This document shows positions 7,237 through 29,921 of a stretch of DNA of 32,039 bases, piece after piece. The notes under the pieces are model-generated. The model was not told where the DNA came from. It worked only from the letters and a program-made list of their open reading frames with translations, and did no database searches. Source of the stretch: Candidatus Binatia bacterium. Lineage in GTDB: Bacteria; Desulfobacterota; Binatia; HRBIN30. The stretch is from contig JBBRSP010000047.1 in NCBI GenBank assembly GCA_038245295.1, forward strand, positions 1 to 32,039, in the 5' to 3' direction. How positions within the stretch are numbered: position 1 is the stretch's first letter; each line of letters begins with the position of its first letter. The translations under genes were made by a program, and so were the position numbers.

Positions 7237-7265
7237 TTGTCACCCATTGCGTGGTTTTGTATGCA
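7237..7265 (+). promoter_or_regulatory. Possible sigma70 promoter for rpsB (TTGTCA-N17-TATGCA)
   Basis: Consensus-like -35 and exact 17-bp spacer, ending 45 bp upstream of the ATG. The -10 lacks its final T. Confidence 0.35.
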
Positions 7266-7310
7266 GGCAGTTCCGACGTTGAGATTTCACCCAGATAGAG
7301 AGAGGTTCGT

Positions 7311-8096
7311 ATGCCAGAAGTGAGTATGAAGCAGCTTCTAGAAGCCGGTGTGCACTTTGGTCACCAGACCAGCCGTTGGAACCCAAAGATGAAGCCCTAC
7401 ATCTTCGGCGCCCGTAACGGCATCTACATCATCGATCTGCAGCGCACCGTGAAGCTGTTCGAGACGGCGTACGCGTTCGTACGTGATCTCTCCGCCCGTG
7501 GCGGCTCACTTCTGTTCGTCGGCACCAAGAAGCAAGCGCAGGACGCGATCCGCGAAGAAGCAGAGCGTTGCGGCATGTTCTACGTCAATACGCGCTGGCT
7601 GGGCGGCACGCTGACCAATTTCCAGACCATCAAGGCAAGCATCGATCGCCTCAAGAAGTGCGAAGAGATGCTCGACGATCCGGCCATGGCGCAAGCCCTG
7701 ACCAAGCGTGAGTTGCTCAACATATCGCGTGAGAAGGACAAGCTCATGCAGTCGTTGGGCGGCATCAAGATGCTCAAGAAGCTGCCGGACGCGCTCTTCG
7801 TCATCGATCCGAAGAAGGAAGAGATCGCGGTCAGGGAAGCGAATAAGCTGCATATCCCGGTGGTCGCGGTGGTTGATACCAACTGCGATCCCGACGTCGT
7901 CGACCACAAGATTCCCGGCAATGACGACGCCATTCGTGCCATCCGCTTGTTCTGTGGCGCCATTGCCGACGCTGCCCTCGAGGGCAAGGCGATCAATGAA
8001 GAGCGCCAGCGCGGACAGGGCGTCGAAGCAGACGCCCCGGCCGAGAAAGTCGAAAAGGTCGAAGCCGAGCCGGTGTCCGAAGGAGCCATTGCATGA
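7311..8096 (+). CDS. rpsB: 30S ribosomal protein S2
   Basis: [48 protein letters not shown] and [11 protein letters not shown]. Confidence 0.99.
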
Positions 8097-8707
8097 GTGA
8101 GGTAAGTGCGACGTCGGTGCGCGATCTGCGCGACAAGACCGGCGCCGGAATGTTGGACTGCAAGAAGGCGTTGACCGATAGTGGTGGCGACGTCGACAAG
8201 GCGATTGTCATCCTTCGTGAGAAGGGCCTCGCCGCAGCGCAGAAGAAGTCAGCTCGTAACGCCAGCCAAGGCATGGTGGGCTCGTACATCCATGCCGGCG
8301 GCAAGATCGGCGTGCTGATCGAAGTGAACTGTGAAACCGACTTTGTGGCTCGCACCGATCTGTTTCAGGACATGGTGAAGGACCTGGCGATGCAAGTCGC
8401 CGCCGCCAACCCGCGGTTCGTGCGTCGCGAAGAAGTTCCTGCCGATCTGGTCGAAGCCGAACGCGCCATCTACCGAACCCAGGCCGCGGGCACCGGCAAG
8501 CCGGCGAACGTGATTGAGAAGATCGTTGATGGCAAGGTCGACAAGTTCTTTGCCGATGTCTGTCTACTCGAGCAGCCTTTTATCAAGGAGCCGGGCAAGA
8601 GTGTTGGCCAGTTGGTGACGGATTCGGTCGCACGCATTGGAGAGAACGTCGTGGTGCGCCGCTTCGCCCGCTTCCAACTCGGAGACGCGTCCGAACAGGC
8701 TGAATGA
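8093..8707 (+). CDS. tsf: Elongation factor Ts (short form)
   Basis: [16 protein letters not shown] and [14 protein letters not shown] overlap with rpsB. Confidence 0.99.
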
Positions 8708-8715
8708 GCGCCTAA

Positions 8716-9489
8716 GTGCCCGCCGCGAAACCCCGCTCTCGCTCCGCCAAGCCGCGTGCTGCCAAACGAGCCGCGCCTAAGGGGCTGCGTTACCAAAGAG
8801 TGTTGTTGAAGCTGAGCGGTGAGGCGCTAGCACCCGAGGGCGGCTACGGCATCGCTCCCGCCGTCCTGCAACGCATCGCTCTCGAAATCCGCGAAGTTCA
8901 TCTGCTCGGCTGCGAGCTGGCGATTGTCATCGGTGGAGGCAACATCTTCCGAGGCATCGCCGGCAGCGCCCGCGGGATGGACCGCGCCAGCGCCGACTAC
9001 ATGGGCATGCTGGGCACCGTCATCAATGCCCTTGCCCTCCAGGACGCTCTCGAACAATTGGGCGTCATGACGCGTGTTCTCTCGGCGATCGGCATGCAAC
9101 AGATCGCCGAGCCGTACATTCGCCGTCGCGCCACCCGACATCTCGAGAAGGCGCGCGTCGTCATCTTCGGTGCCGGTACCGGCAACCCGTTTTTCACAAC
9201 CGATACGGCAGCCAGTCTGCGCGCCGTCGAGATTGGCGCCGAGATCATCATGAAGGCGACCAACGTCGATGCCATCTACGACAAGGACCCAAAGAAGTTC
9301 CCGGGTGCCAAGCGCTTCACCAAGTTGAGCTACATCGAGTGCCTCAACCGGCACTTGAAAGTCATGGACTCAACTGCCATTTCCCTGTGCATGGACAACA
9401 ACTTACCGATCCTGGTGTTCGACCTGAATCGGCGCGGCAACATCAAGCGCGCCGTCCGGGGAGACTCGATCGGTACAATGGTGAATTGA
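8716..9489 (+). CDS. pyrH: UMP kinase
   Basis: [39 protein letters not shown] and VMDSTA. Basic N-terminal extension, so the exact start is uncertain. Confidence 0.98.
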
Positions 9490-9496
9490 GAGCACC

Positions 9497-10054
9497 ATGA
9501 CCGACGCGGTCATTGAAGACTTGAAACGCGAGTTGGATGAAACGGTTGTTGCGTTGCGGCACGAGCTGACGCGCGTGCGCACCGGGCGTGCGTCCGTTGG
9601 TCTGCTCGACGGCCTGACGATCGAGTATTACGGCGCCAAGAGTCCCCTCAATCAGGTAGCCAGTCTGTCGGCGCCGGAGCCGCGCATGCTGATCATCCAA
9701 CCGTTTGATCGCAGCGTTCTTGGCGATATCGAACGTGCGATTCACCAATCGGACCTCGGCCTGACGCCCGCCAATGACGGCAAGATCATCCGCGTGCCGA
9801 TTCCAGAGCTGACCGAAGAGCGCCGCAAGAACCTCGTCAAACACGTGCGCAAAATCGGTGAAGACTATCGCGTCTCGGGAAGAAACCACCGGCGCGATGC
9901 GATCGACCTCCTGAAGACTCTGGAAAAGGATAAAGAGATCACCGAGGATGATCTGCGTAAGGCGCAGGAGAAGGTCGAAGAGATGACCAAACACTGCATC
10001 GAACGCCTCGAGCAGGTGCTGAAAGCCAAAGAAGCCGACGTCATGGAGGTCTGA
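9497..10054 (+). CDS. frr: Ribosome recycling factor
   Basis: VRTGRA, YYG..SPLNQVA, DLGLTPANDG and PELTEERRK. Conserved position after pyrH. Confidence 0.98.
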   Translation: MTDAVIEDLKRELDETVVALRHELTRVRTGRASVGLLDGLTIEYYGAKSPLNQVASLSAPEPRMLIIQPFDRSVLGDIERAIHQSDLGLTPANDGKIIRVPIPELTEERRKNLVKHVRKIGEDYRVSGRNHRRDAIDLLKTLEKDKEITEDDLRKAQEKVEEMTKHCIERLEQVLKAKEADVMEV

Positions 10055-10059
10055 GTCGC

Positions 10060-10827
10060 GTGGCCAAGCCACCGTCGCCTGAGCTCGACCTCGAACGCCT
10101 TCCACAACACGTCGCCATCATCATGGATGGCAACGGCCGCTGGGCCAAACGACGTGGACTGAGCCGCGTCGAAGGTCACAAAACCGGTAAGGATTCGGTT
10201 CGTGCCGTCGTCGAATCGAGTCGCCGCATCGGCATCAAGTACCTGAGCCTCTTTGCGTTCTCCACGGAAAATTGGGAGCGCCCGCCTCGCGAAGTGAGCG
10301 CGCTCATGGGTCTGCTGCGCCGCTACCTGCTGAGCGAGCTGCGCAAGATGATGAAGAACGAGATCCGCTTGTTGGCGGCCGGCGATCTGAGCCGACTGCC
10401 AACCGGCGTGCGTGAGGATCTGCAGCGTACGATCCAGCAGACCGCTGGGAATCAGGGCATGACCGTCATCCTGTGCGTCAGTTACGGCGGCCGCGAAGAC
10501 ATCATTGCGGCGGCGCGAGCCTTGGCGCAAGAGGCGCGCGAGGGCAACCTCGATCCGCAGCAGATCGATAGCGCACTGTTCTCCAGCCGCCTCAGCACGG
10601 GCGGCATTCCGGATCCCGATTTGCTGATACGCACGAGCGGCGAGATGCGCATCTCCAACTTCTTCCTGTGGCAGGCCGCGTACTCGGAGATTTATGTGAC
10701 CGACACGTTGTGGCCGGACTTCCGCGAGCCCGAGTACTTCATGGCGCTGGCGGAGTACCAGCGCCGCGAACGCCGTTTCGGGCGCATCACCGATTCCGCC
10801 GAGGAGCAATTGCGTGCTGCGCGCTAG
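10060..10827 (+). CDS. uppS: Undecaprenyl (polyprenyl) diphosphate synthase
   Basis: PQHVAIIMDGNGRWA, FAFSTENWERP, YGGREDI and PDLLIRTSGEMRISNFFLWQAAYSE. Confidence 0.98.
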   Translation: MAKPPSPELDLERLPQHVAIIMDGNGRWAKRRGLSRVEGHKTGKDSVRAVVESSRRIGIKYLSLFAFSTENWERPPREVSALMGLLRRYLLSELRKMMKNEIRLLAAGDLSRLPTGVREDLQRTIQQTAGNQGMTVILCVSYGGREDIIAAARALAQEAREGNLDPQQIDSALFSSRLSTGGIPDPDLLIRTSGEMRISNFFLWQAAYSEIYVTDTLWPDFREPEYFMALAEYQRRERRFGRITDSAEEQLRAAR

Positions 10828-11608
10828 GCTGGTCACCGCGGCCGTTGCGATCCCTCTACTCATCCTGATCGTCTTTCAGGCCTCGCCGTGGCCAATCTCG
10901 ATCCTGATTCTGGCCATCGCGGCGGTCGGCATGGCGGAATTCGCCGGCATGGCGTTTCCCAATCAACGCTTCGAAAAACTCTTCACCGTCGTCGGCGGCA
11001 CGGCGATCGCCCTCGCCGCGGCCTTCCCGGCTCCGGCAATTCAGGCCACCCTCGCGGCTACGTTCATCGTTGGCCTCACCTGGGTTCTCGTGTCGCGTCC
11101 TGATTTTGAAAACGGCCTGCGCGATCTAGGGCTGGCTCTGGTCGGCATATTGTATGTTGGCTTTCTGTTGCCACACTTCATCTTGCTGCACGAGATTGGG
11201 CCACTCGGACCACGCTGGGTTTTTTGGGTCATCGCCATCGGCATGGCCGGCGACACATCCGGCTACTTCGTTGGCAAATCCTTCGGCCGCCATAAGCTGA
11301 TCCCGCATGTCAGCCCGGGCAAGACCGTCGAAGGCGCGGTCGGGATTCTTGCCGGGAGCTGTTTGATTGGCGTCCTGTTCAATTTCATTCTGCAGCTTGG
11401 CCTGACGCCCACGACGGCGCTGTTGCTCTCCGGTGTGATGGGGATCATCGGGCAAATCGGTGACCTGACCGAATCCGTGATCAAACGCGCCTTCGGCTCC
11501 AAGGAGTCGGGTTGGATCATCCCCGGCCACGGCGGCGTGCTCGATCGCATCGATAGTCTGCTTTTCCCCCTAGTATTTCTGTATTACCATCTTATGTTCG
11601 TGCGCTAA
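10814..11608 (+). CDS. cdsA: Phosphatidate cytidylyltransferase
   Basis: Polytopic membrane protein with SPGKTVEG and GDLTESVIKR....KESG.IIPGHGGVLDRIDS. Confidence 0.97.
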   Translation: MLRARLVTAAVAIPLLILIVFQASPWPISILILAIAAVGMAEFAGMAFPNQRFEKLFTVVGGTAIALAAAFPAPAIQATLAATFIVGLTWVLVSRPDFENGLRDLGLALVGILYVGFLLPHFILLHEIGPLGPRWVFWVIAIGMAGDTSGYFVGKSFGRHKLIPHVSPGKTVEGAVGILAGSCLIGVLFNFILQLGLTPTTALLLSGVMGIIGQIGDLTESVIKRAFGSKESGWIIPGHGGVLDRIDSLLFPLVFLYYHLMFVR

Positions 11609-11633
11609 CCAATCGCGCGCAGATGGAGTCGAT

Positions 11634-12704
11634 ATGTTTATCCTCGCGTCTATTCTCGTCCTTGGATTCTTGATCGTTTTTCACGAGCTCGGGCACTTCT
11701 TGGTCGCCAAACGTGTCGGCGTAGGTGTTCTCAAGTTCTCCGTCGGCTTCGGCCCGACACTCTTCGGCCGCAAGATCGGCAACACCGAGTATGTGATCAG
11801 CGCCATCCCGCTCGGTGGCTTCGTCAAGATGGTTGGCGAAGATCCCGACGAAGAGCTCACCGACAACGATCGAAAAGTAGCTTTCCAGACACAGGCGCTG
11901 TGGAAGCGCCTTGCCATCGTGCTCGCCGGACCAGCGGCCAATCTGCTGCTCGCCTTCCTGGTATTTTCCTTCGTGTTTGCCGCCTTCGGCGCCCGCGTTC
12001 CCACGGAAGTTGCCAAAGTCGGTGGTGTGACAGAAGGCATGCCCGCTGCGGCGGCCGGCTTGCAAGCCGGCGACGTGATCACCTCGATCAACAGCAAGCC
12101 GATTGAAAAGTGGGAGCAACTTTCGGAAGCCATTCGCGCCAGCGAGGGCAAGCCGGTGACGTTGAACGTGCAGCGCGCCGGAAGCGCGGTCCAGATCGAA
12201 GTGACACCGCAGGCGCAACCTGACAAGACCATCTTTGGCGAGACCGTCGGCACCGCCTACCTGATCGGCGTCGAACGCGGCATGGAGATCCAAAACGTCG
12301 GCGTGATCACCGCCCTCAGCATGGGAGTCTCGCAGACCGTTTCGTGGTCCGAAATCCTGCTCACCGGCGTCGGCAAGATGCTCCAGGGCAAGGTGTCCGC
12401 CAAGGAAATCGGCGGGCCGATCCAGATCGTCAAGGAAGCCGGCAAACAAGCGCGCGCCGGCTGGGAAAATCTTCTTTACTTCATGGCCGTCATCAGCGTG
12501 AATCTCGGCGTTCTCAATCTGCTGCCCATCCCCGTTCTGGATGGCGGACATCTGGTCTTCTTCGCCTTCGAAGCCGTCTTGCGCCGCCCGCTCGATCTGC
12601 GTCACCGCGAGATCGCCCAACAGTTCGGTTTCGTGGTGCTGGTTTGCCTGATGGTGTTTGCCTTCTACAATGACATCACGCGCCTGATCCAAGGCTGGGG
12701 CTGA
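11634..12704 (+). CDS. rseP: Intramembrane metalloprotease RseP (one PDZ domain)
   Basis: HELGH, FSVGFG, IPLGGFVKM, AGPAAN, a PDZ segment (PAAAAGLQAGD) and NLLPIPVLDGG. Confidence 0.97.
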   Translation: MFILASILVLGFLIVFHELGHFLVAKRVGVGVLKFSVGFGPTLFGRKIGNTEYVISAIPLGGFVKMVGEDPDEELTDNDRKVAFQTQALWKRLAIVLAGPAANLLLAFLVFSFVFAAFGARVPTEVAKVGGVTEGMPAAAAGLQAGDVITSINSKPIEKWEQLSEAIRASEGKPVTLNVQRAGSAVQIEVTPQAQPDKTIFGETVGTAYLIGVERGMEIQNVGVITALSMGVSQTVSWSEILLTGVGKMLQGKVSAKEIGGPIQIVKEAGKQARAGWENLLYFMAVISVNLGVLNLLPIPVLDGGHLVFFAFEAVLRRPLDLRHREIAQQFGFVVLVCLMVFAFYNDITRLIQGWG

Positions 12705-13383: not shown

Positions 13384-14856
13384 TCAGTCGGGCTGTCGGA
13401 GCTCATAGACCGCCATCTGCATCCCGAAGTCGACGCGCTGGGCCGCGTGGTTTTCGATCCATTCGTGGATCGCGGCGCCTTCCGGAAACAGATAGGCGTA
13501 GTGGGTCCACAACACCCGCACCGGCCACCGCGTCGCCACGGCCGCGTCGAGGTCCTTCAGCGCGAAGAAACGCCACTCCTGTCGCACCGCGGTAGGTGCG
13601 TAGAACTTGATATACGGTCCGCCGTTCAGCAGCACCACAACATCCCCTGGGCGGATTGTTTTCTCGAGATACTCGCCGGCGCCGCGCCAGTCCTCGCGCG
13701 GAGAGCGATAGTAGGCGGGCAACTGCGGAATCGCCGTTGCCAAGAGACCGAGCGTGAGACAAGCACTGGCCAAGGTGGCGACCGGCAGGTCGCGGCGTGG
13801 TGACAGACGCTCGACGACAGCCACAGCGGCGCGCGCCGTGGCTTCTACTCCGGCTGCAACGAGCAGGAGGTATGGCGGCAAGATGAACAGCACCTGGCGC
13901 ACGTTGAAGAAGTAATGCACGAGCTGATCCGACAACACGACGAGCGGCAAGGTGGCACCGACCCAGAGCGCCAGCATAAGGCCTAGTGCGCTGTCGCGCC
14001 GGGTACAGATCCCCAACCCGATCAACGCGAAGGCGAACCACAACGGCCAATACTTCGGATTGCCGCCGCTCAAGGTGGTCAGGGTTTCGCGCACCAGCTC
14101 CCAGGTAAACGGCGGCGGCTCGATCGCCGGACGGTTGCCGACTTCGTAGCGTACGGCGAACAAGACCCACGGCACGAAGCCGACGCCGCCGACGAGCGCC
14201 GCGATCGTGAATCGTAGGAAGCGCTGGTAAGCGGGCGTGCGTGCGCGCGACCGAGAGAGCGACTGTCCCAGCGCGTAGACGCCATGAAAGGCGGCGAGCA
14301 GCACGGTGTAGTAGTGCGTGTAGAGGCCGGCGACGAGGCACAGCGAGTATCGCATCCACAGCCCTGTGCGATTGCGCTCCGAGGCGACCAGGAAACACTC
14401 GGTCGCGATCAGCGTCAGCAGCACGAACGAGGCATAGAAACGTAGCTCCTGCGAGTACCAGATATGAAAGCTGCTGAACGTCAGAAGCAGCGCGGCGATG
14501 ATGCCGGTCTCCGCCGACACGAGGCGCCGGCCCAGCCGCGCCAACCAGTATACCGACAATGTTCCCCACAACGCCGGCGGCAGCCGCAGCACCCATTCAC
14601 TGTGCGACAGCCGCACCATCACGCTGGTGATCAGATAGTCGAGCGGCGCCGCGCCGTGGTGCGCCTCGACGCCGGCAAGAATAGCGCGCAAAGAAGTTTC
14701 CGCCGCCACCGCCGCCTGCGCCACTTCATCGAACCACAAACTGCGCGACCCGAGACGATACAACCGCAACGCCGCAGCGATGGTCAGGATGGATCCCAGC
14801 ACCCAGCGGCTGTCGGCCGCGGCTGATGGCGGCGGGCGGTGAATCGGTGCGGACAT
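13384..14856 (-). CDS. GT-C superfamily membrane glycosyltransferase (PMT/ArnT-like)
   Basis: LRLYRLG.RSLWFDE, H..PL.Y, SEWVLRLP..L.G, HIWYSQELRFYA and LYTHYY, with many TM segments. Start at MSAPIH follows an AGGGGG RBS. Confidence 0.85.
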   Translation of the reverse strand: MSAPIHRPPPSAAADSRWVLGSILTIAAALRLYRLGSRSLWFDEVAQAAVAAETSLRAILAGVEAHHGAAPLDYLITSVMVRLSHSEWVLRLPPALWGTLSVYWLARLGRRLVSAETGIIAALLLTFSSFHIWYSQELRFYASFVLLTLIATECFLVASERNRTGLWMRYSLCLVAGLYTHYYTVLLAAFHGVYALGQSLSRSRARTPAYQRFLRFTIAALVGGVGFVPWVLFAVRYEVGNRPAIEPPPFTWELVRETLTTLSGGNPKYWPLWFAFALIGLGICTRRDSALGLMLALWVGATLPLVVLSDQLVHYFFNVRQVLFILPPYLLLVAAGVEATARAAVAVVERLSPRRDLPVATLASACLTLGLLATAIPQLPAYYRSPREDWRGAGEYLEKTIRPGDVVVLLNGGPYIKFYAPTAVRQEWRFFALKDLDAAVATRWPVRVLWTHYAYLFPEGAAIHEWIENHAAQRVDFGMQMAVYELRQPD

Positions 14857-14939
14857 CCCCCTGTCAGTATCAGCGGTCGGTCGACTTGCGCCAGCCCGAC
14901 GGCGCTCCGGAGGGCTTTGCACGGCAATTCAGATGCGAG

Positions 14940-21135: not shown

Positions 21136-21768
21136 ATGCGCTTCGCCTCCGAAGGCTACCGCCACATGGCCACCAGTCTCGTGCTGGTGCTGGTTCTGTA
21201 CTGGGCCGCCGGCGCCAGCGGTGGCTTCGTCGGGCTCGTTCTGGCCGCTCTGGTCATCAACTTCTTCCGCGACCCGGAACGTCAGGTGCCCCCCGACCCC
21301 CAAGCCATTGTCTCGCCTGCCGATGGCAAGGTCATCAAGGTCGAGAAGATCCAAGACGATCGATTCCTCAACGGCCCGGCAACCATGATCAGTATCTTCA
21401 TGTCGCCGCTCGACGTGCACATCAACCGCATCCCGTGGAGCGGTCGGGTCGTCGATGTCCGTTACAATCCCGGCAAATACCTGCGCGCCTTTGCCGATAA
21501 GGCGTCGCTCGACAACGAGCAGACCGCGGTGGTGATGGAAGACGCGCAGCAGCGGCGGTTCGCCTTCGTTCAGATCGCCGGCTTTATCGCGCGACGAATT
21601 ATCTGCCGACTCAAACCCGGGATGGAAGTAGAGCGTGGCTCGCGATACGGCATGATCATGTTCGGTTCGCGCGCCGATATCTTCTTGCCGCCCGAGGCGG
21701 TGGTCAGTGTGAAGCTCGGAGATCGCACCCAGGCGGCGCAAACCATCCTAGCCCGGTGGCCGGCATGA
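21136..21768 (+). CDS. psd: Phosphatidylserine decarboxylase proenzyme
   Basis: FFRDPER, SPADGKV, SIFMSPLDVHINR, QIAGFIARRI and the FGSR self-cleavage motif. Confidence 0.96.
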   Translation: MRFASEGYRHMATSLVLVLVLYWAAGASGGFVGLVLAALVINFFRDPERQVPPDPQAIVSPADGKVIKVEKIQDDRFLNGPATMISIFMSPLDVHINRIPWSGRVVDVRYNPGKYLRAFADKASLDNEQTAVVMEDAQQRRFAFVQIAGFIARRIICRLKPGMEVERGSRYGMIMFGSRADIFLPPEAVVSVKLGDRTQAAQTILARWPA

Positions 21769-22577
21769 GTGAGCCCATCAAGAAGCCGGCCGTCATGTTC
21801 CCGGTCGACGGCGGTTCACCGCTGCGCAAGGGCGTCTACCTGCTGCCCAACTTGATTACGACGGCCGGACTCTTCTCCGGGTTTTACTCCGTCATCTGCA
21901 GCCTGCATGGCGACTTCGCGCGCGCCGCCGTGGCCATCCTCGCCGCCAATATCTTCGACGCCCTTGATGGGCGCATCGCGCGTGCGACCAAGACGACGAG
22001 TCGCTTCGGTATAGAGTACGACTCACTCGCCGACCTCGTCGCGTTCGGCGTGGCGCCGGGCATTCTCGTCTATTGCTGGGCCCTCGAACCGTGGGGTACC
22101 TGGGGCTGGCTGGCGGCTTCGCTTTTCGTGACCTGCGGTGCACTGCGACTGGCGCGCTTCAATGTTCAAGTCGACTCCACCGAGAAGCGTCACTTCATCG
22201 GACTGCCGATTCCCGCCGCCGCCGAGGTGATCGCGTCGGTCGTGCTGCTGTCATCGCGCTTCGGCGGCGAAGGGCCGACCGAGAAACATCTGCTGCTGCT
22301 GCTCATCACGTATGCGCTGGCCGGCTTGATGGTCAGCAACATCAAGTATTTCAGTTTCAAAGAAGGCGAGCTCTACCGACGCCAGCCGTTCGGCGTCCTG
22401 ATTGCCGTCATCGTCGTCCTCAAGCTGCTCATCGCCGAGCCGCAGATCATGCTCTTCGCCGGCTTCCTGCTGTTCGCCCTGTCCGGACCTTTCCGCCTCG
22501 TTTTTGTACTCGGGAAGAGGTTTTGGAAGCTGCGTCATCGCAACCGGCAACACCCGCCGCGCGCCGAAGCGGCATAG
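21765..22577 (+). CDS. pssA: CDP-diacylglycerol--serine O-phosphatidyltransferase
   Basis: LLPNLIT, FDALDGRIAR....TS.FG.EYDSLADLVAFGVAPG, LRLARFN and FIGLPIPAAA. ATGA overlap with psd. Confidence 0.96.
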   Translation: MSEPIKKPAVMFPVDGGSPLRKGVYLLPNLITTAGLFSGFYSVICSLHGDFARAAVAILAANIFDALDGRIARATKTTSRFGIEYDSLADLVAFGVAPGILVYCWALEPWGTWGWLAASLFVTCGALRLARFNVQVDSTEKRHFIGLPIPAAAEVIASVVLLSSRFGGEGPTEKHLLLLLITYALAGLMVSNIKYFSFKEGELYRRQPFGVLIAVIVVLKLLIAEPQIMLFAGFLLFALSGPFRLVFVLGKRFWKLRHRNRQHPPRAEAA

Positions 22578-22942: not shown

Positions 22943-23701
22943 CTACACCGCCTTGCGGCCGCCGAACACGGCCAGCTCGAATACCTTGAAGAAACAGTCG
23001 ACGTCGACGAAGCCGATGTCGCGTAGCCAGGCGCATTGGGTGTCGACCGGCGCCAGGATGTTGGCTGCCTTGTCTGGGCGCTGTACGAACTCGCGCCGTA
23101 GCTCCTCGCGTGACTTGCCGCTGCCCTTGCTCGCTTGAAAGGCGGTGATCGTGTCTACCATCAGCTCGTCGGCCATTGCTTCGACGCGTGGTGTTGCGGA
23201 CTCGACGTGTTCAACATTGACGAACATGCCACCCGGGGCGAGCAGCTCGAAGATCTCGCGGTAGAGGGCTTTCTTGCGGTCGTGTTCGAGATGGTGAATG
23301 GCGTAGCCCGAGACGATCAAGTCGATGGGCTCGCGGGTTTGCAGGGAGTCGGCCCAAGCCGGCGACGCGAGATCACCGACCGCAAAGATTGGCGTCGGCT
23401 TGAACGAGCCGAGACTGCGGCGCGCCTCGTCGAGCATGGCTTCGGAGAAATCAATCAAGACGGCCTGGGCGCCGGGGAAGCGCGACAAGACCGCATGCGC
23501 CAGGACGCCGCTGCCGCAACCAAGGTCGGCAAAACGCCGCACCGCGCCGAGCTGCGCCGCGACGACGCGCAGCATGATCTCCAATTGATCGGCGGCGTAG
23601 GGGACGCCGCCACGCACATCGTGGACGAAGGTATGCACCAGCTTCGGATCCTGCCACACGACATCTTGTCGCTGTTCCCGGGAATTCATGCGGTCCACCA
23701 T
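22943..23701 (-). CDS. Class I SAM-dependent methyltransferase (CmoA-like fold family)
   Basis: DLGCGSG, IDFSEAML, DLIVSGYAIHHL and LAPGGMFVN. Start is 23701 or 23689. Confidence 0.9.
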   Translation of the reverse strand: MVDRMNSREQRQDVVWQDPKLVHTFVHDVRGGVPYAADQLEIMLRVVAAQLGAVRRFADLGCGSGVLAHAVLSRFPGAQAVLIDFSEAMLDEARRSLGSFKPTPIFAVGDLASPAWADSLQTREPIDLIVSGYAIHHLEHDRKKALYREIFELLAPGGMFVNVEHVESATPRVEAMADELMVDTITAFQASKGSGKSREELRREFVQRPDKAANILAPVDTQCAWLRDIGFVDVDCFFKVFELAVFGGRKAV

Positions 23702-23756
23702 GGTTCGATGCCGCCCCGTCGGTCAACCGACGAGTTCGCACGAATGTCAGAGGGAC

Positions 23757-23780
23757 GGTAGGCGCAGGCTTCAGCCTGCG
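23757..23780 (+). repeat. GTAG-type REP GGTAGGCGCAGGCTTCAGCCTGCG
   Basis: Identical to 22801-22824. Confidence 0.88.
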
Positions 23781-23845
23781 AAGAGCTCCGACGCGAATCG
23801 GAGGGCGACGCCTAAGCCCCAGCCTAAGCCTGTGAGCGCAGCGAA

Positions 23846-24595
23846 CTAGAGATACGCCCCACCATTCGGACTGATCACCTGCCCGGTCACAAACCCGGCC
23901 TCCTCCGACGCCAGATAGGCACAAGCCGCCGCGATATCCTCGGGGCGGCCGACGCGTTTGACCGGCATCTTCTGCGCCAGTTGCTCGACCACACTGTCGG
24001 GCATCCCCGAGGCGCGCAGCATCGGTGTATCGATCAGGCCGGGAGCGACGGCGTTGACGGTGATGCCATCCGCAGCGAGCTCGTGCGCCAAGGCCTTGGT
24101 GAAACCGATGATGCCACCCTTGGCCGAAGCATAGTGCAGCAGGCCCGAGCCGCCGCCGTTCATGCCGGCCACCGACGTAATGTTGATGATGCGGCCCCAG
24201 CGCGCCGCGATCATCCCGTCGGCTACCGCCTTGGCACAGTGGAAGACACCCTTGAGGTGCACCGAGATCATCTCGTCGAAGATCGCCTCACTCATCATAG
24301 CGAATGGCACCAGCGTGCAGATGCCGGCGCTGCAAACGAGGATTTGAGGTGCACCGAGCTTCAAGGTTGCTCTGGCAGCGGCAGCCTGAACCGACGCGGC
24401 GTTTGTCACGTCGACCTCGATTGCCTCAGCGCGGCCGCCGGCGGCGATGATCTCCGCCGCGACCGACTGCGCCCCGGCGAGGTTGCGATCGACGACGGCG
24501 ACCGCCGCACCATCCTGCGCCAGTCGAAGCGCCACACCGCGGCCGATCCCCGAGGCACCGCCGGAAATGAATGCCGTCTTGTTCTGCAACTTCAT
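23846..24595 (-). CDS. FabG-like short-chain dehydrogenase/reductase
   Basis: MKLQNKTAFISGGASGIG, GRIINITSVAG, YASAK, ITVNAVAPGLIDT and FVTGQVISPNGG. TGATG overlap with the upstream small gene. Confidence 0.93.
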   Translation of the reverse strand: MKLQNKTAFISGGASGIGRGVALRLAQDGAAVAVVDRNLAGAQSVAAEIIAAGGRAEAIEVDVTNAASVQAAAARATLKLGAPQILVCSAGICTLVPFAMMSEAIFDEMISVHLKGVFHCAKAVADGMIAARWGRIINITSVAGMNGGGSGLLHYASAKGGIIGFTKALAHELAADGITVNAVAPGLIDTPMLRASGMPDSVVEQLAQKMPVKRVGRPEDIAAACAYLASEEAGFVTGQVISPNGGAYL

Positions 24596-24834
24596 CAGTG
24601 CACCCGTACGTGTCCTTCCAGTCCATTGTCCAGCCGCGCGTTCAACCGTTCCAGGCTGCGCACGGCGCGCAACGCCTCGTTGCGCGAGCTCAGTCCCGTC
24701 GCTACGACGGCGGCGGTATTGGCGTCGACAACTTCCCAACCTACCTCGCCGGTACGTCGCAGTCTTACTTCGCGCATGCGGTAGTTCGCCGAAGCCTGCT
24801 CATCGCTGAGAACGTCGCGACCGATCGCTTCCAT
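24595..24834 (-). CDS. Small hypothetical protein (79 aa)
   Basis: AGGAGA RBS, start 9 bp after the MurG-like stop, and stop overlapping the SDR start. Confidence 0.7.
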   Translation of the reverse strand: MEAIGRDVLSDEQASANYRMREVRLRRTGEVGWEVVDANTAAVVATGLSSRNEALRAVRSLERLNARLDNGLEGHVRVH

Positions 24835-24843
24835 GGGATTCTC

Positions 24844-25947
24844 CTACATCCGTCGTCGGTCTTGCGGAAGCAAAGATAGGCACATGGCGGCAACATGTTC
24901 CGCGGCATCCGTCGGGGCGCCGCGGCGCATCGCATCGGCAGCGCGTTGCCAGGCGCTCGCATCACGCAGGAGACCGGCGATGTGTTGCGCAACGTCTTCG
25001 CTGCGCCAGTCCGCTTCCGTGCTCCAACCACATCCCGTCAGACGCGCAAACTCGATCGCGTTGTGGCGCTGATGATCCTCCGAGGCCCAGCTCAGCGGCA
25101 CCATGTAGATCGGCAGGCCCGCATTGGAGCACTCGGCGGTCGTAATACCGGCGGCGCACAGCGCAAAATCGGCCCACGCCAAGGCCGCCGGCATCTCATC
25201 GGTCGCCGCTTCGACGTGGGCTGGGATTGCCGCTTGCTCATAGGCGGCGCGTACGGCGGCGACCGCATCGGCACTACCCGTCAGATGACGAACCTCGATC
25301 GACACGCCGAGATCGCGGATGCGCGTCGCCAGCTCGGCGCCGACGCGATTGAAGAAGGCCGATCCATACGAGCCGCCGGTGAAGAGGAGATGTGCCGGAG
25401 AATGCACGCCGACCCGCGTCGCGCCGACGGCCGCGAAGGCCGCACGCACGGGGATGCCGGTGACCTCGACGTTCCGAGTCGTGAAGAAGGCGCGTGTCGC
25501 CGCGTAGCTGACGGCGATGCGGTCGGCGAAACGCCCGAGCATTCGATTGGCGAGGCCGGGGTTGACGTTGCCCTCGTGGATCAGGATCGGCAGCCCCAAC
25601 CAGCGTGCCGCCAGCAAGCCGCCGGCGCTGGCATAACCACCGAATCCGACGACCGCCGCGATGTCGTCGCGTTGGAGGATGCGTCGTGCCGCCAATATGC
25701 CGCGGCTGAGGTTGGCCAGCGCCTTCACCTTGCCGCCGGCTCCGACGCGGAGATATGCCGAAGCAGGAATCGCCTCGACTCGGTACCCGGCGCGTCGCAG
25801 ATACGCTGTTGGCCCGTCCACCGCTTCGCCCAGGAAGAGAATGTCGAGCTGCGTATCCCGCCGTCGCAACACCTCTGCCACCGCCGCCGCGAGATACACA
25901 TGCCCCGCCGTCGTTCCGGCCAGCAGCGCGACGCCGCGCTTGTTCAT
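24844..25947 (-). CDS. MurG-like GT28 glycosyltransferase (divergent paralog)
   Basis: AGTTAGH, VVGFGGYAS, IHEGN..PGLANR, VTGIPVR, TGGSYGS, WAD..LCAAG.TTAE, P...EDHQRHNA: the MurG motif order with substitutions. No dcw genes nearby. Confidence 0.85.
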   Translation of the reverse strand: MNKRGVALLAGTTAGHVYLAAAVAEVLRRRDTQLDILFLGEAVDGPTAYLRRAGYRVEAIPASAYLRVGAGGKVKALANLSRGILAARRILQRDDIAAVVGFGGYASAGGLLAARWLGLPILIHEGNVNPGLANRMLGRFADRIAVSYAATRAFFTTRNVEVTGIPVRAAFAAVGATRVGVHSPAHLLFTGGSYGSAFFNRVGAELATRIRDLGVSIEVRHLTGSADAVAAVRAAYEQAAIPAHVEAATDEMPAALAWADFALCAAGITTAECSNAGLPIYMVPLSWASEDHQRHNAIEFARLTGCGWSTEADWRSEDVAQHIAGLLRDASAWQRAADAMRRGAPTDAAEHVAAMCLSLLPQDRRRM

Positions 25948-25966
25948 CGATCCCACCAGCGGATTC

Positions 25967-26046
25967 AAATCACCAAACGATCAAATGACCAAATGGCGAA
26001 ATAGACAAATGGCGAAATTGCGAAATGGCCAAATGCCCAAATGCCC
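25967..26046 (+). repeat. 10 x 8-bp degenerate tandem repeat (AAATGNCS-like) in the divergent promoter region
   Basis: AAATCACC AAACGATC AAATGACC AAATGGCG AAATAGAC AAATGGCG AAATTGCG AAATGGCC AAATGCCC AAATGCCC. Confidence 0.92.
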
Positions 26047-26094
26047 CTATCTCCCATTGAGGGCCCGGCTCTTGCGCGGTATCGGGAGACGCCG

Positions 26095-27369
26095 ATGAGT
26101 GCCCAGCCCAAGCGGGTCGCCGTCGTTGTCCTCGGCGATGTCGGTCGAAGCCCGCGCATGCAGTATCACGCCCAGGCGCTGGCGCAGGCCGGCGTGCAAG
26201 TCGACCTCATCGGCGCCGCCGGAAGCCCGCTCCCGGAGAGCATCATCGGCAACGCCGCAATCCATTCTCACCTCTTCGAACAGAGCCTGCGCGCGGCGCG
26301 TCACGCCTGGTCGCGGCCGCTGTTTGTCGCGTACTCGGGCCTGCGTGCCGTTCGCGAAATGTTCACCTTGGGGCTGACGCTGCTCTTCCGTATCCCCAAG
26401 CCCGACGCCATTCTCATTCAGAATCCACCGTCGATCCCCGTGTTGATGATTGCCTGGTGCGCCGCCCGGTTGCGTGGCGCAAAGTTGATCATCGACTGGC
26501 ACAACTACGGTTTTGCGATGCTCGCGCTGACCCTAGGGCCGCGTAATCCCCTCGTTGCTCTGGCGCGAGCCTACGAAATGTTCTTTGGCCGCCGCGCCGA
26601 CGCAAGCCTGTGTGTCTCTCGAGCGATGGCCGATGATCTGCGCGATCGCTGGGGTATCGAGGCGACGATTCTCTATGATCGCCCGGCGGCCCGTTTCCAG
26701 CCGACGTCCCCAGGCGAGCGATCGACCCTCCTCGACAAACTGGAAGGCGCGCTGGAAGGCTACGACCCCAATTCCGGGATGCGCCCGGTACTCATCGTCA
26801 GCAGCACCAGTTGGACAAAGGACGAGGACTTCTCGCTGCTGATCGAGGCGGCGCGCAGCTACGACCAGGCGGCGCGCCAGTACTCCGGGACGCTGCCGCG
26901 TCTCCTGTTCGTGATCACCGGACGTGGACCGCTGCGAGCGCACTACGAGGAAGAGTTGCGTGGCCTCGACCTGCACGTCGTGCATTTCGAGACCTTGTGG
27001 CTCGAGCCCGAAGACTATCCGCGCTTTCTTAGTATCGCCGACCTGGGCATCTGCCTGCATCGCTCGGCGAGCGGCGTCGACCTTCCCATGAAGGTTGCCG
27101 ATATGGTTGGTGCCGGCTTGCCGGTGTTGGCGTTGCATTACAGCGACTGCATCGAGGAGATGATCGTGCATGGTCGCACCGGCATGCTGTTCCAGTCGAG
27201 CCGCGAGCTGTTCGAACAGTTGGCCGAGATCGTGCGCGGCTTTCCGACGTCGGCAACCGAGCTGCAACGTTTGCGGCGCACGGTCGGCGCTGCCCGCGGC
27301 TACGCCTGGGACGCCGGTTGGCGCGACGAAGCGTGGCCGCTGCTGCAGAGACAGCTGGGCGACGAATGA
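26095..27369 (+). CDS. ALG1-like beta-1,4-mannosyltransferase (GT33-like)
   Basis: VVVLGDVGRSPRMQYHA, LIQNPPSIP, LIIDWHNYG, LYDRP, IVSSTSWTKDEDFSLL, ITGRGP, WLEPEDYP and ADLGICLHRSASGVDLPMKVADM closely match eukaryotic ALG1 as I recall it. GGAG RBS upstream. Confidence 0.9.
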   Translation: MSAQPKRVAVVVLGDVGRSPRMQYHAQALAQAGVQVDLIGAAGSPLPESIIGNAAIHSHLFEQSLRAARHAWSRPLFVAYSGLRAVREMFTLGLTLLFRIPKPDAILIQNPPSIPVLMIAWCAARLRGAKLIIDWHNYGFAMLALTLGPRNPLVALARAYEMFFGRRADASLCVSRAMADDLRDRWGIEATILYDRPAARFQPTSPGERSTLLDKLEGALEGYDPNSGMRPVLIVSSTSWTKDEDFSLLIEAARSYDQAARQYSGTLPRLLFVITGRGPLRAHYEEELRGLDLHVVHFETLWLEPEDYPRFLSIADLGICLHRSASGVDLPMKVADMVGAGLPVLALHYSDCIEEMIVHGRTGMLFQSSRELFEQLAEIVRGFPTSATELQRLRRTVGAARGYAWDAGWRDEAWPLLQRQLGDE

Positions 27370-29186
27370 GCGGTAACGCCGAGACCTCGATGCTCGCCGC
27401 GCTGCGGCAATGCGTCGAGCTTCTTCCTGCACCCAATCGGCGCCTGTGGCTGCTTTGTATTCCCCTTGCCGCGGTTGCCGCCGGATTGGAAGCGGCTGCC
27501 GCCGGCGGCGTGTTTGGCTTGGTGAGCGTGTTGACGGGTGGTGACGCCCGACATGTCCCGGTGCTCGGCAAAGCGTGGGCGCTAGTCTCCGCCAATGGCA
27601 CCCCGAGCGTCGCTGCCATGGCGGTCTTCCTCGCCGCTCTCTACGTCGTCAAGAATCTGGTGCTGGTCCTGCAAGTGTGGTTGCTGAGTCGCGCGACCAA
27701 TGATGCGTCGGTAGCGCTCTCGCGGCGCTTGCTGCGCGGCTTCTTGCACATGCCTCTATCGGCCCACCTGGAGCGGACGTCCGCCGACATCATCCATCAA
27801 GCCACCGAAGCGGTTGACATCGCTGTTCGCCAGTTTCTGTCGCCGCTCACCATGGCCGCGTCTGAGGTCCTCGTGCTGGCGGTGATCGCGCTCGTGCTTG
27901 TTCTTGCGTCGCCCGGCGCGGCACTCGCCGTCGTCATCGCTTTTGCGTTGATCCTTTTCCTGGTGATGCGTCTGGTGCGCCACTGGCTGCTCATCTGGGG
28001 CTCGCACGAACAGCACCGCCGCGCCGAGATGTTGTACATCTTGCAGCAAGCCTTCGAGGGTTTGCGCGAAGTGAAGCTGCGCGGTGGCGAACGCTTCTTC
28101 GAGGAGCGCTTCGCATCGCGTCATCGTATCCTGGTGCGCGCTCGGCACCGTTCCGGGACGCTCAACCAGGCATCGCGCCTGATCGTCGAGACGGCGTTCG
28201 TCGTCGGCACTCTGATTACGGTGATCGTCATCGACCACGTCTACGGCGCCACCAGTGTGGTTCTCCCGCTACTCGGCGTGTACGCCTACGCCGGCTTCCG
28301 AGTCATCCCGTCGATGAACCGCATTTTCCAGTACACGGGCATTGCCCGCTACGGCCAGCCTTCGGTTGCGCGCATGGCGGCGGATCTGCGCTCCGTCGAG
28401 GCCATCCAGGAGGGCGTCGCAAGCTCCGGAGCGAGCGCGGTGATTGAGCTCACACGAGCAATTTCGTTCGAGGACGTCAGCCATGTCTACCCGCAAGCGT
28501 CTCTGGCGGCGCTGAGTGGCATCAACCTTACCATTGAGCGCGGCCAGTCGATCGCCATCGTTGGACCGACGGGCTCCGGCAAGAGCACGCTGATCAACAT
28601 CCTCCTTGGTTTTGTCGAGCCGACGAGTGGTCGAGTGTCCGTGGACGGCGTGGATATCCGTCGCGGCTTGCGCTCGTGGCGCGGCAAGCTGGGTTACGTG
28701 CCGCAGTTGGTTTTTCTGCTCGACGACAGCTTGCGACGCAACATCGCGTTTGCCCAGGCGGATCAGGACATCGACGAAGAACGCGTGCGCCGCGCCGTTC
28801 ACGCGGCGCAGTTGGATGAAGTGATCGCCGCGCTTCCGAAGGGTCTAGATTCGGTGGTCGGCGAACGCGGTGCGCGCCTGTCGGGCGGCGAGCGCCAGCG
28901 GGTTGCCATCGCGCGGGCTCTTTATCCGGATCCGGAAGTGGTTGTCTTCGACGAGGCGACGTCGGCGTTGGACAGCGAGACCGAACGCGAACTGACGCGA
29001 GCCATCGACACCCTGCGCGGTTACAAGACGATCGTCATCATCACGCACCGAATGAACACCGCAAAACGGTGCAACCGCATCGTGGTGCTCGACCGCGGCC
29101 GCATCCACGGCGTTGGTACTTATGAAGAACTGCTCGCCGGCAACGCAGTGTTTCAGCGTCTCGCGGAAAGGAAGAGTGAAGAGTGA
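27366..29186 (+). CDS. Fused TMD-NBD ABC exporter, PglK/WlaB-like (glycan-locus type)
   Basis: About six TM helices, FRVIPSMNRI, Walker A GPTGSGKST, YVPQ, LSGGERQR, VVFDEATSALD and ITH. ATGA overlap with the ALG1-like gene. The ABC call is secure; the PglK subfamily call is inference. Confidence 0.85.
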   Translation: MSGNAETSMLAALRQCVELLPAPNRRLWLLCIPLAAVAAGLEAAAAGGVFGLVSVLTGGDARHVPVLGKAWALVSANGTPSVAAMAVFLAALYVVKNLVLVLQVWLLSRATNDASVALSRRLLRGFLHMPLSAHLERTSADIIHQATEAVDIAVRQFLSPLTMAASEVLVLAVIALVLVLASPGAALAVVIAFALILFLVMRLVRHWLLIWGSHEQHRRAEMLYILQQAFEGLREVKLRGGERFFEERFASRHRILVRARHRSGTLNQASRLIVETAFVVGTLITVIVIDHVYGATSVVLPLLGVYAYAGFRVIPSMNRIFQYTGIARYGQPSVARMAADLRSVEAIQEGVASSGASAVIELTRAISFEDVSHVYPQASLAALSGINLTIERGQSIAIVGPTGSGKSTLINILLGFVEPTSGRVSVDGVDIRRGLRSWRGKLGYVPQLVFLLDDSLRRNIAFAQADQDIDEERVRRAVHAAQLDEVIAALPKGLDSVVGERGARLSGGERQRVAIARALYPDPEVVVFDEATSALDSETERELTRAIDTLRGYKTIVIITHRMNTAKRCNRIVVLDRGRIHGVGTYEELLAGNAVFQRLAERKSEE

Positions 29187-29337: not shown

Positions 29338-29622
29338 TTACGACCTCGGACGTAGCCGCGCCGCCGCGTCGATGTAGATGGACGAGCGCGGGCCGATGGC
29401 GGAGATCTCAATGGCCGCACCGCGTTCGCGATAGACAATACGAATCCGCCCGACGCGGAGAGACTTCCAGCCGGCCAGCTCTTGCTTGAGATCCTTGCCG
29501 ATACTTGGATTGGCGCGCAGCTCGTCGAGCCCGCGCCGGATTCGCCGCTTCATGTCGGGATGCAGCGACCGAATCGCCGCCGCCACCGATGGCGGTAGGC
29601 GTAGAGGTTTGACGGCTGCCAC
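29338..29622 (-). CDS. Type II toxin, RelE/ParE family
   Basis: L..NP..GK.L..EL.G..SLRVG..RIVY.....I.I.AIG.R..IY. Lies 2 bp downstream of the antitoxin. Confidence 0.9.
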   Translation of the reverse strand: MAAVKPLRLPPSVAAAIRSLHPDMKRRIRRGLDELRANPSIGKDLKQELAGWKSLRVGRIRIVYRERGAAIEISAIGPRSSIYIDAAARLRPRS

Positions 29623-29624
29623 GG

Positions 29625-29921
29625 CTAGCGCGGCGATCGCTTGCGTGGCTTCTGTGCGACGAGCCTATCCAGGGCGGCCGTATCGTAGAGGGTGCCATGG
29701 CCCCGTTGTAGGGCGCGTTTGCCGCGCCGGATCTCACGCATGAGATCGTCGTCGGCGAGGATCTCCGTAGTTTCCTTCCAGCTCTCGAATTCCTCGTGGC
29801 TCACCAGCACCGCGGCAGCTCGGCCATTCCGCGTAATCGTGATCTCTTCGGATCGCGCTGCCACGTCGGCAACCAGCTCACTCAGGGTCGCTTTTGCCTC
29901 GGAGAGGGGAAGGATACGCAT
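29625..29921 (-). CDS. Type II antitoxin, Phd/YefM family
   Basis: LSEAKATLSELV..V....EEITITRNGRAAAVLVS.EEFESWKET.EIL. Confidence 0.93.
   Translation of the reverse strand: MRILPLSEAKATLSELVADVAARSEEITITRNGRAAAVLVSHEEFESWKETTEILADDDLMREIRRGKRALQRGHGTLYDTAALDRLVAQKPRKRSPR

Follow-up and report, generated by a model that had tools for sequence, protein, structure and literature searches.

Linked genes for a MurG paralog, an ALG1-like mannosyltransferase and an ABC exporter as a candidate half of a eukaryote-type N-glycosylation pathway in a Binatia bacterium

We analysed contig JBBRSP010000047.1 of an uncultured, soil-type Candidatus Binatia bacterium (assembly GCA_038245295.1, 6.6 Mb, 96.6% complete), the whole of which, 32,039 nucleotides (nt) long, is here called the window (contig C47 in our numbering). 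The subject of this report is a trio of neighbouring genes that encode a glycosyltransferase family 28 (GT28) protein resembling MurG, a homolog of the eukaryotic mannosyltransferase ALG1, and a fused ATP-binding cassette (ABC) exporter (Table 1). The GT28 and ALG1-like genes are divergent, with 72 nt between their open reading frames (ORFs) and 147 nt between their likely starts. The ALG1-like gene ends in GAC GAA TGA and shares an ATGA overlap with the start of the exporter gene, whose product begins MSGNAETS. An earlier sequence-only reading of this DNA had described a head-to-head pair followed by an ATGA overlap; both features were borne out by the ORF list and the sequence, and its limits for the three ORFs are identical to those in the list. 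The arrangement of the trio is confirmed, and the ALG1-like gene and the exporter gene are translationally coupled. A look for RNA evidence listed no record with the trio.

Table 1. Position of the trio, of other features of the window and of related features on other contigs (aa, amino acids; LLO, lipid-linked oligosaccharide; NBD, nucleotide-binding domain; SAM, S-adenosylmethionine; SDR, short-chain dehydrogenase/reductase; TMD, transmembrane domain)
Feature	Position	Strand	Remarks
GT28 (MurG-like) paralog	24844..25968	-	ORF of 374 aa; likely ATG 25947, 367 aa; PF03033 + PF04101
Divergent spacer	25948..26094	.	octamer CAAATGRC tandem array at 25966-26045
ALG1-type (GT33-like) beta-1,4-mannosyltransferase homolog	26095..27369	+	424 aa (product on record); ORF open from 26041 (26041..27369, 442 aa)
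Fused ABC exporter (TMD-NBD half-transporter)	27366..29186	+	606 aa; ATG at 27366; ORF 27318..29186, 622 aa; ABC_membrane + ABC_tran; candidate LLO flippase
ParE-toxin / Phd-YefM antitoxin pair	29338-29921	-	directly past the exporter
SDR (FabG-like)	23846-24739	-	downstream of the GT28 paralog (22943-24739 with the next)
SAM methyltransferase	22943-23701	-	downstream of the GT28 paralog
psd + pssA	21136-22577	+	mutually overlapping
ORF of 693 aa	16149-18230	+	no Pfam or NCBIfam match
GT-C enzyme, PMT_2 family	13384-14922	-	weak match to Agl23 model
Housekeeping run rpsB-tsf-pyrH-frr-uppS-cdsA-rseP	7311-12704	+	uppS at 10060-10827
Second STT3 of this genome	G000:C12:69180-71792 (L008:9178-11793)	-	WWPNG instead of WWDYG
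Bac_transf-GT28 fusion ORF	L089 (G038:C44:248000-267900) 7242-9077	-	611 aa; between ALG1-like gene and exporter
Wzy_C ligase	L089 1792-4344	+	divergent 850-aa ORF
ALG1-like + ALG2-like fusion ORF	L035:9995-12400	+	801 aa

The product of the central gene carries the N- and C-terminal domains of GT4-type glycosyltransferases in Pfam and belongs to a large family (3295 proteins at E<=0.001 among 7999 scored). Its earlier label, ALG1-like, held up on two counts: the JGI name "beta-1,4-mannosyltransferase" is common among its best 120 homologs, and its nearest named clusters in the ESM Atlas are those of the eukaryotic chitobiosyldiphosphodolichol beta-mannosyltransferase (0.98-1.00, with 204-236 of 256 features shared), a comparison of lead level that is based on features and not on direct alignment to eukaryotic ALG1. 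The family alignment contains the blocks SPRMQYHA, DWHN, TSWTxDEDF and SSSGxDLPMK, which look ALG1-like; the window protein keeps every invariant column. An AlphaFold2 model of the protein (predicted local distance difference test score, pLDDT, 81.5; predicted template modelling score, pTM, 0.80) shows a GT-B fold, and Foldseek matched it to the GT-B enzymes MshA, BshA, PimA and PglA at template modelling scores of 0.6-0.7 and 13-17% identity, the closest solved structures being GT4 enzymes such as MshA, BshA and PimA. Neither the protein nor its family profile matched any PDB entry by sequence (0 matches). The protein contains no transmembrane segment (maximum 19-residue Kyte-Doolittle value 1.37, threshold 1.6); eukaryotic ALG1 typically has a membrane anchor at its N terminus, a trait that does not define the catalytic function. 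As judged from its sequence, the protein is closer to eukaryotic ALG1 than to other GT-B families of the GT4 type.

Experiments on members of the same family have been reported in a preprint, which describes 204 bacterial ALG1 homologs with BLASTp E values of 6e-22 to 1e-104 to human ALG1 (bioRxiv 10.1101/2025.10.15.682550). Homologs from Gammaproteobacteria, Polyangia and Binatia complemented a yeast alg1 mutant and made Man-GlcNAc2-PP-phytanyl (Man, mannose; GlcNAc, N-acetylglucosamine; PP, diphosphate), a product that human ALG2 extends, and a GlcNAc2-PP-lipid acceptor was required in vitro (bioRxiv 10.1101/2025.10.15.682550). The ALG1-type enzyme of the window is predicted to catalyze the same step, the GDP-Man-dependent transfer of beta-1,4-mannose to GlcNAc2-PP-polyprenol.

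To characterize the gene context, we collected 171 relatives of the ALG1-like protein (one genome per species) and kept the best 80 with up to 10 kb on each side. Neighbours were sought by tblastn with the window proteins and with proteins from sampled loci, at thresholds of 90 bits for GT28, 250 for ABC, 70 for the oligosaccharyltransferase STT3, 90 for WecA and 200 for GT4, and genes were located by their tblastn coordinates and Pfam matches. By record title the loci come from Binatia/Binataceae, 'delta proteobacterium', Rokubacteria/Methylomirabilota, several Acidobacteriota orders, Polyangia, one Gammaproteobacteria metagenome-assembled genome (MAG) and a few others; 79 of the 80 are titled 'MAG' or 'uncultured', and many contigs are short. 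Counts are given both for all 80 loci and for the 42 that reach 20 kb or more.

The linkage seen in the window is conserved in these relatives. A GT28 paralog lay near the ALG1-like gene in 57/80 loci (31/42 long loci) and an ABC exporter in 52/80 (32/42), and the ALG1-like gene was accompanied by STT3 at 56/80 (30/42), by a WecA-type gene at 35/80 (19/42), by an ALG2-like GT4 at 35/80 (19/42) and by a second type of GT4 (GT4c) at 38/80 (26/42). GT28, STT3 and the exporter occurred together in 33/80 loci, 17 of which held a WecA-type gene too, and only 4/80 loci were without any of the four partners. The GT28 gene was divergent from the ALG1-like gene and at most 500 nt upstream of it in 44 of these 57 loci, so that the arrangement of the trio is far beyond chance. 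WecA and STT3 genes were directly adjacent in 14 of 26 loci holding both, and STT3 was confirmed by Pfam in 9/9 sampled loci. Two loci, L029 and L079, hold complete sets by Pfam, with a primer, STT3, paralog, ALG1-like gene, exporter and a further GT4. Where a single gene separates the ALG1-like gene from the exporter, it is ALG2-like in 17 of 18 loci; the nearest named Atlas clusters of this ALG2-like gene are eukaryotic and bacterial ALG2. Ten genomes whose 20-kb locus had no STT3 were searched in full, and nine of them carry one elsewhere. Of 121 sampled genomes of the phylum, 2 were found to hold the ALG1-like gene; the module looks patchy, in the manner of a transferred unit.

Some variants among these loci may be recorded here. 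The low-GC Gammaproteobacteria MAG (L035) carries ALG1-like and ALG2-like modules in one ORF, followed by a further GT4, an exporter and a GT28 paralog, and then by STT3 on the opposite strand. The STT3 proteins are of two kinds. One, seen in Acidobacteriota and Rokubacteria loci (L044, L056, L062), measures ~750-960 aa and has an AglB_core-like domain (PF22627); the other, seen in Binatia-type loci (L016, L029), measures ~885-990 aa and has the STT3-PglB core (PF21436).

The GT28 protein matches PF03033 (E 7e-25) and PF04101 (E 6e-17) and had been read as a divergent MurG. In agreement with this label, it scored 199 bits against the murG equivalog model TIGR01133, short of the cut-off (250.25), in a match that spans positions 5-352 of 353, and its best solved relatives are MurG structures (Pseudomonas aeruginosa MurG 3s2u, E 4.5e-36). 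A separate canonical murG was found on contig C40 within the division and cell wall (dcw) cluster (order murF-mraY-murD-ftsW-murG-murC) with 312 bits, over the cut-off. The window gene is therefore a paralog and not the sole murG of the genome; the two proteins are 29% identical, and the paralog stands outside the dcw cluster, flanked by the SDR gene and the ALG1-like gene. Two full-length matches to the MurG model were also present in 5/5 other genomes, at 272-356 bits and 210-253 bits. In an alignment of 53 paralogs and 6 canonical MurGs, the paralogs keep the catalytic and donor motifs of MurG, namely the G-loop His, GGY, the HExN loop, the HQxxNA block and the TxxE block, with TAGH for TGGH, hEaN for EQN and GSxG for GSQG. 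At least 90% of the 53 paralogs retain the G-loop His, and the window copy reads AGTTAGH at this position. The Alg14-type domain PF08660 is absent from the paralog, PF03033 and PF04101 being the only Pfam matches at E<=0.01, and the protein has no hydrophobic segment.

The separation of these paralogs from MurG was supported by phylogeny. A quick IQ-TREE analysis compared 53 cluster-linked copies (51 of the 57 tblastn hits, kept by length and coverage, together with the window copy and the copy of genome G038) with 6 canonical MurGs. It set 52/53 cluster-linked copies on one side of a branch with a Shimodaira-Hasegawa-like approximate likelihood ratio test (SH-aLRT) value of 99 and the canonical MurGs on the other. 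The remaining row, par_L051, groups with the canonical MurGs on a long branch and probably falls outside the paralog family.

The context of the paralog points to an early step in building a lipid-linked glycan. Genome G038, which belongs to the same class, carries the paralog and a Bac_transf (PglC/WbaP-type) priming phosphoglycosyl transferase as one fused ORF, which places the paralog directly after the priming step, and in G128 and G130 the paralog adjoins STT3, apart from the ALG1-like gene. Because the paralog is linked to ALG1 and STT3 and can be fused to a priming transferase, and because ALG1 needs a GlcNAc2 acceptor, we infer that it adds GlcNAc as a putative chitobiosyl-PP-lipid synthase.

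The third gene of the trio encodes a protein with ABC_membrane and ABC_tran domains in Pfam and several hydrophobic segments. Against curated models it scored 311.6 bits for MsbA (cut-off 602), 278 for HepA (cut-off 725) and 251.6 for PglK (cut-off 1000). A PDB sequence search returned 277 matches with ABCB1 and ABCB4 on top and did not separate PglK-like from MsbA-like proteins, and the next-best paralog of the exporter in its own genome scored 199 bits. By these comparisons the exporter is a generic ABCB-type half-transporter. The earlier description of it as PglK-like stands insofar as a fused TMD-NBD exporter is encoded with LLO glycosyltransferases; given the distance from the PglK cut-off, the likeness to PglK itself is one of analogy only. 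Its linkage suggests that it may serve as the flippase for a polyprenyl-PP-oligosaccharide.

The sequence-only reading had noted that a priming transferase and an oligosaccharyltransferase lie outside the window. We searched the genome for both and found them adjacent on contig C2. The primer candidate is a second PF00953 gene of the WecA/Alg7 type, whose best NCBIfam model is WecA (131 bits, under the cut-off), and it is directly followed by an STT3 gene whose product matches PF02516 (64.6-68.9 bits) and the PglB core domain and has the motif AWWDYGYW, with WWDYG intact. The pair resembles the cluster-linked ones of related genomes, its primer being 51% identical to that of L029 and its STT3 scoring 461 bits against that of L016. 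Contig C12 carries another STT3, with 32% identity to the one on C2 and within a few kb of the lipopolysaccharide-core genes lpxK, a Kdo-kinase-family gene and a GT9 heptosyltransferase. An ALG2-type gene was looked for in the genome and not found, whether with a protein query, by tblastn (best 53.5 bits) or with a hidden Markov model built from 32 ALG2-like members (best 75.5 bits, compared to at least 319 for the members). ALG2 is likely absent from this genome, which is 96.6% complete, and the predicted glycan would thus be a minimal Man-GlcNAc2, unless other enzymes extend it.

Taken together, we consider it probable, at roughly 0.7, that the trio is the assembly-and-flipping half of a split, minimal, eukaryote-type bacterial N-glycosylation pathway. 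The proposal of the sequence-only reading, that the trio makes and exports Man-GlcNAc2-PP-lipid, is supported as far as computation goes. In the proposed pathway, the WecA/Alg7-type enzyme encoded on C2 would first form GlcNAc-PP-undecaprenol, the carrier being presumably undecaprenol since uppS lies in the window. The MurG paralog would then add a second beta-1,4-GlcNAc, as its homology, retained motifs and gene linkage suggest. In eukaryotes this sugar is added by Alg13/14, and in Crenarchaeota by Agl24. The ALG1-type enzyme would follow with a beta-1,4-mannose from GDP-mannose, as shown for its homologs in the preprint, after which the ABC exporter may flip the trisaccharide-PP-lipid to the periplasmic face, as its linkage indicates, and the C2 STT3, with its WWDYG motif, would move the glycan onto asparagine. 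The ALG1 step is backed by the experiments on homologs, and the chitobiose, flipping and asparagine-transfer steps rest on linkage and homology.

Several observations weigh against this pathway. First, the trio and the WecA-STT3 pair are on separate contigs, C47 and C2, and no STT3 was found within 10 kb in 12/42 long loci. Second, the related genomes are kin, so the counts among them describe a recurrent pattern and not independent events. Third, 3/5 ALG1 homologs were active in the preprint, those from Deltaproteobacteria and Methylomirabilota being inactive (bioRxiv 10.1101/2025.10.15.682550). Fourth, three Vicinamibacterales genomes (G133, G134 and G136; loci L080, L085 and L087) carry the ALG1-like gene and a single match to the MurG model. 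The paralog is thus not obligatory for the module, and in these genomes, where the ALG1-like gene adjoins a WecA-type gene, a GT4 and an exporter, another enzyme must supply the acceptor or the acceptor differs. Fifth, by its sequence the paralog may act on GlcNAc-PP-lipid or on lipid I, and the exporter is below the cut-off of every curated model. Lastly, STT3 is not rare in the phylum, being present in 19 of the 121 sampled genomes over the cut-off and in 25 at E<=0.001, so its presence in a genome is by itself weak and nonspecific evidence. To these are added two genomes in which the ALG1-like gene is present and no STT3 was found, G131 and the 100% complete G038, on which the first alternative draws.

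According to this alternative, the trio does build and flip an LLO of the Man-GlcNAc2 type, which is destined for a non-protein acceptor or an O-linking enzyme, and the C2 STT3 serves another glycan; a WaaL/PglL-type Wzy_C ligase, a surface polysaccharide or a lipooligosaccharide are candidates. G038 has its ALG1-like gene, the primer-GT28 fusion and an ABC exporter beside a Wzy_C ligase, and together with G131 it indicates that the module can feed another transferase. The distance between the trio and STT3 in the present genome fits the alternative as well, as does the phylum sample, since most of its 19-25 genomes with STT3 have no ALG1. We nevertheless regard it as unlikely: the ALG1-like gene has an STT3 at no more than 10 kb in 56/80 loci, 9/10 tested genomes without one nearby hold it elsewhere, the WecA-STT3 pair of the present genome matches the cluster-linked ones, and the window shows no Wzy_C gene next to the trio.

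A second alternative concerns the paralog, which might add a different sugar or use a different acceptor, such as a variant of lipid I or a lipid of the diacylglycerol type like that used by the monogalactosyldiacylglycerol (MGDG) synthases of GT28, and so belong to another envelope glycolipid pathway. GT28 also includes lipid glycosyltransferases, psd and pssA are 2-3 kb away in the window, the three Vicinamibacterales genomes with ALG1 are missing the paralog, and the G-loop differs from that of MurG (TAGH for TGGH), the Q of GSQG being lost as well. This alternative is improbable in light of the gene context, in which psd and pssA stand beside the ALG1-like gene in 0/80 loci and the SDR in 4/80 at the thresholds used, while in G038 the paralog forms one ORF with a polyprenyl-phosphate priming transferase and in G128 and G130 it adjoins STT3. 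The donor-side blocks of MurG, HQxxNA and TxxE, are kept, and some enzyme must make the GlcNAc2-PP-lipid that ALG1 homologs need in vitro.

That the adjacency is merely the remnant of a pathway being lost, with the genes inactive or repurposed, agrees with the failure to find ALG2 (75.5 bits against at least 319), the split of the cluster over two contigs, the WWPNG of the C12 STT3 and the ALG1-like gene in only 2/121 phylum genomes, and is very improbable given three intact ORFs, an ALG1-like protein that keeps every invariant column of its family alignment, the retained ATGA coupling and the WWDYG of the C2 STT3.

The N-glycosylation pathway favoured here can be compared with known systems. 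With the eukaryotic LLO pathway (Alg7, Alg13/Alg14, Alg1, Alg2, STT3) it shares the proposed order of an N-acetylhexosamine-1-phosphate primer, a beta-1,4-GlcNAc and a beta-1,4-Man, an ALG1-like protein whose nearest named relatives are eukaryotic ALG1, an STT3 with WWDYG and, in 35/80 related loci, ALG2-like genes. It differs in having a fused MurG-type GT28 in place of the split Alg14 and Alg13, an ALG1-like protein without an N-terminal membrane helix, an ABC exporter as the flippase candidate in place of RFT1, no ALG2 found, a single-subunit STT3 and a carrier that is presumably undecaprenol. The Campylobacter pgl system (PglC, PglA/J/H/I, PglK, PglB) is similar in its combination of a primer, cytoplasmic GT-B transferases, an ABC-type flippase and STT3/PglB, and the corresponding genes form one cluster in relatives of this genome. 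In contrast to pgl, the glycan predicted here begins with GlcNAc2-Man and not with N,N'-diacetylbacillosamine and N-acetylgalactosamine (diNAcBac-GalNAc), the primer is of the WecA/MraY type (PF00953) and not of the PglC type, the exporter is far from the PglK cut-off (251.6 vs 1000) and the genes are on two contigs.

Agl24 of Sulfolobus acidocaldarius offers a parallel for the paralog. This archaeal GT28-type enzyme is reported to make the chitobiose core, to be ~16% identical to MurG and to share with MurG an essential histidine of the GGH motif (PMC8993221). Both Agl24 and the paralog are fused two-domain GT28-type proteins without a transmembrane helix and with the GGH-loop His. Unlike Agl24, the paralog lies on the MurG side (199 bits to the murG model, E 4.5e-36 to 3s2u, 29% identity to its own MurG), which points to a bacterial MurG duplicate that was recruited independently of Agl24.

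The homologs treated here share their protein family and their lineages (Binatia, Methylomirabilota, Polyangia, Gammaproteobacteria) with the bacterial ALG1/ALG2 homologs of Xu et al. (bioRxiv 10.1101/2025.10.15.682550). The terms gene cluster, operon, STT3 and synteny do not occur in the main text of that preprint, and, relative to that text, the linkage to a MurG paralog, an ABC exporter, a WecA-type primer and STT3 is described only here.

The surroundings of the trio were also noted. The octamer array in the divergent spacer has a period of 8 and 7.8-9.8 copies (Tandem Repeats Finder); arrays of CAAATGRC with at least three units occur at 12 places in the genome, that of the spacer being the longest, and the array may be a regulator site or a dispersed repeat. 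Downstream of the exporter, the toxin-antitoxin pair marks the end of the module. The SDR and SAM methyltransferase genes downstream of the paralog are not conserved beside the module: the SDR was found near the ALG1-like gene in 4/80 loci (1/42 long loci), and psd, pssA, the methyltransferases and the PMT_2 gene in 0/80 (0/42). An MGDG-synthase-like role, which psd and pssA had prompted us to consider, was rejected, as psd, pssA and both methyltransferases stood at 0/80 loci and the SDR at 4/80. The pssA product scored almost alike against the archaetidylserine synthase model (145.9 bits) and the bacterial pssA model (144.6 bits). The uppS of the housekeeping run makes the presumed undecaprenyl carrier.

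In the part of Lombard 2016 (PMC4973528) that deals with Alg1, its prokaryotic relatives are given as not determined and it is proposed as a possible eukaryotic innovation. The preprint on active ALG1/ALG2 homologs does not address their role in bacteria in its main text (bioRxiv 10.1101/2025.10.15.682550). Apart from that preprint, our literature search found none that joins Binatia with an oligosaccharyltransferase; for PglB/STT3 with Acidobacteria, Rokubacteria, Methylomirabilota or Binatota, only ecology literature was among the matches listed, and no description of the cluster was found. The pathway falls among STT3-dependent protein N-glycosylation systems, and its ALG1 part is anticipated by the preprint. 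What the gene context supplies is the bacterial biology, in that the genes for ALG1 homologs recur in a module together with those for a primer, a MurG paralog, an ABC exporter and STT3. They make up a candidate pathway of bacterial N-glycosylation whose core is of the eukaryote type, to which this window contributes a minimal, split form without ALG2.

More tentatively, and short of even odds in our estimate, several bacterial soil phyla (Binatia-type bacteria, Methylomirabilota, Acidobacteriota and others) might natively N-glycosylate proteins with the eukaryotic core Man1-3GlcNAc2, and such a mobile module, and not an archaeal one, might be the source of the eukaryotic ALG1/ALG2 steps. This wider scenario would comprise true ALG1/ALG2 orthologs, chitobiose synthesis by a recruited MurG duplicate and a dedicated ABC exporter, with the minimal Man-GlcNAc2 form in the present genome. 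The module bears on the origin of eukaryotic protein glycosylation. If the candidate N-glycosylation pathway is confirmed, the origin of the cytosolic mannosylation steps of the endoplasmic reticulum pathway would become directly testable, the recruitment of MurG to chitobiose synthesis would prove to be independent of Alg13/14 and Agl24, and a compact, all-bacterial gene set would be at hand for eukaryote-type N-glycan cores in bacteria.

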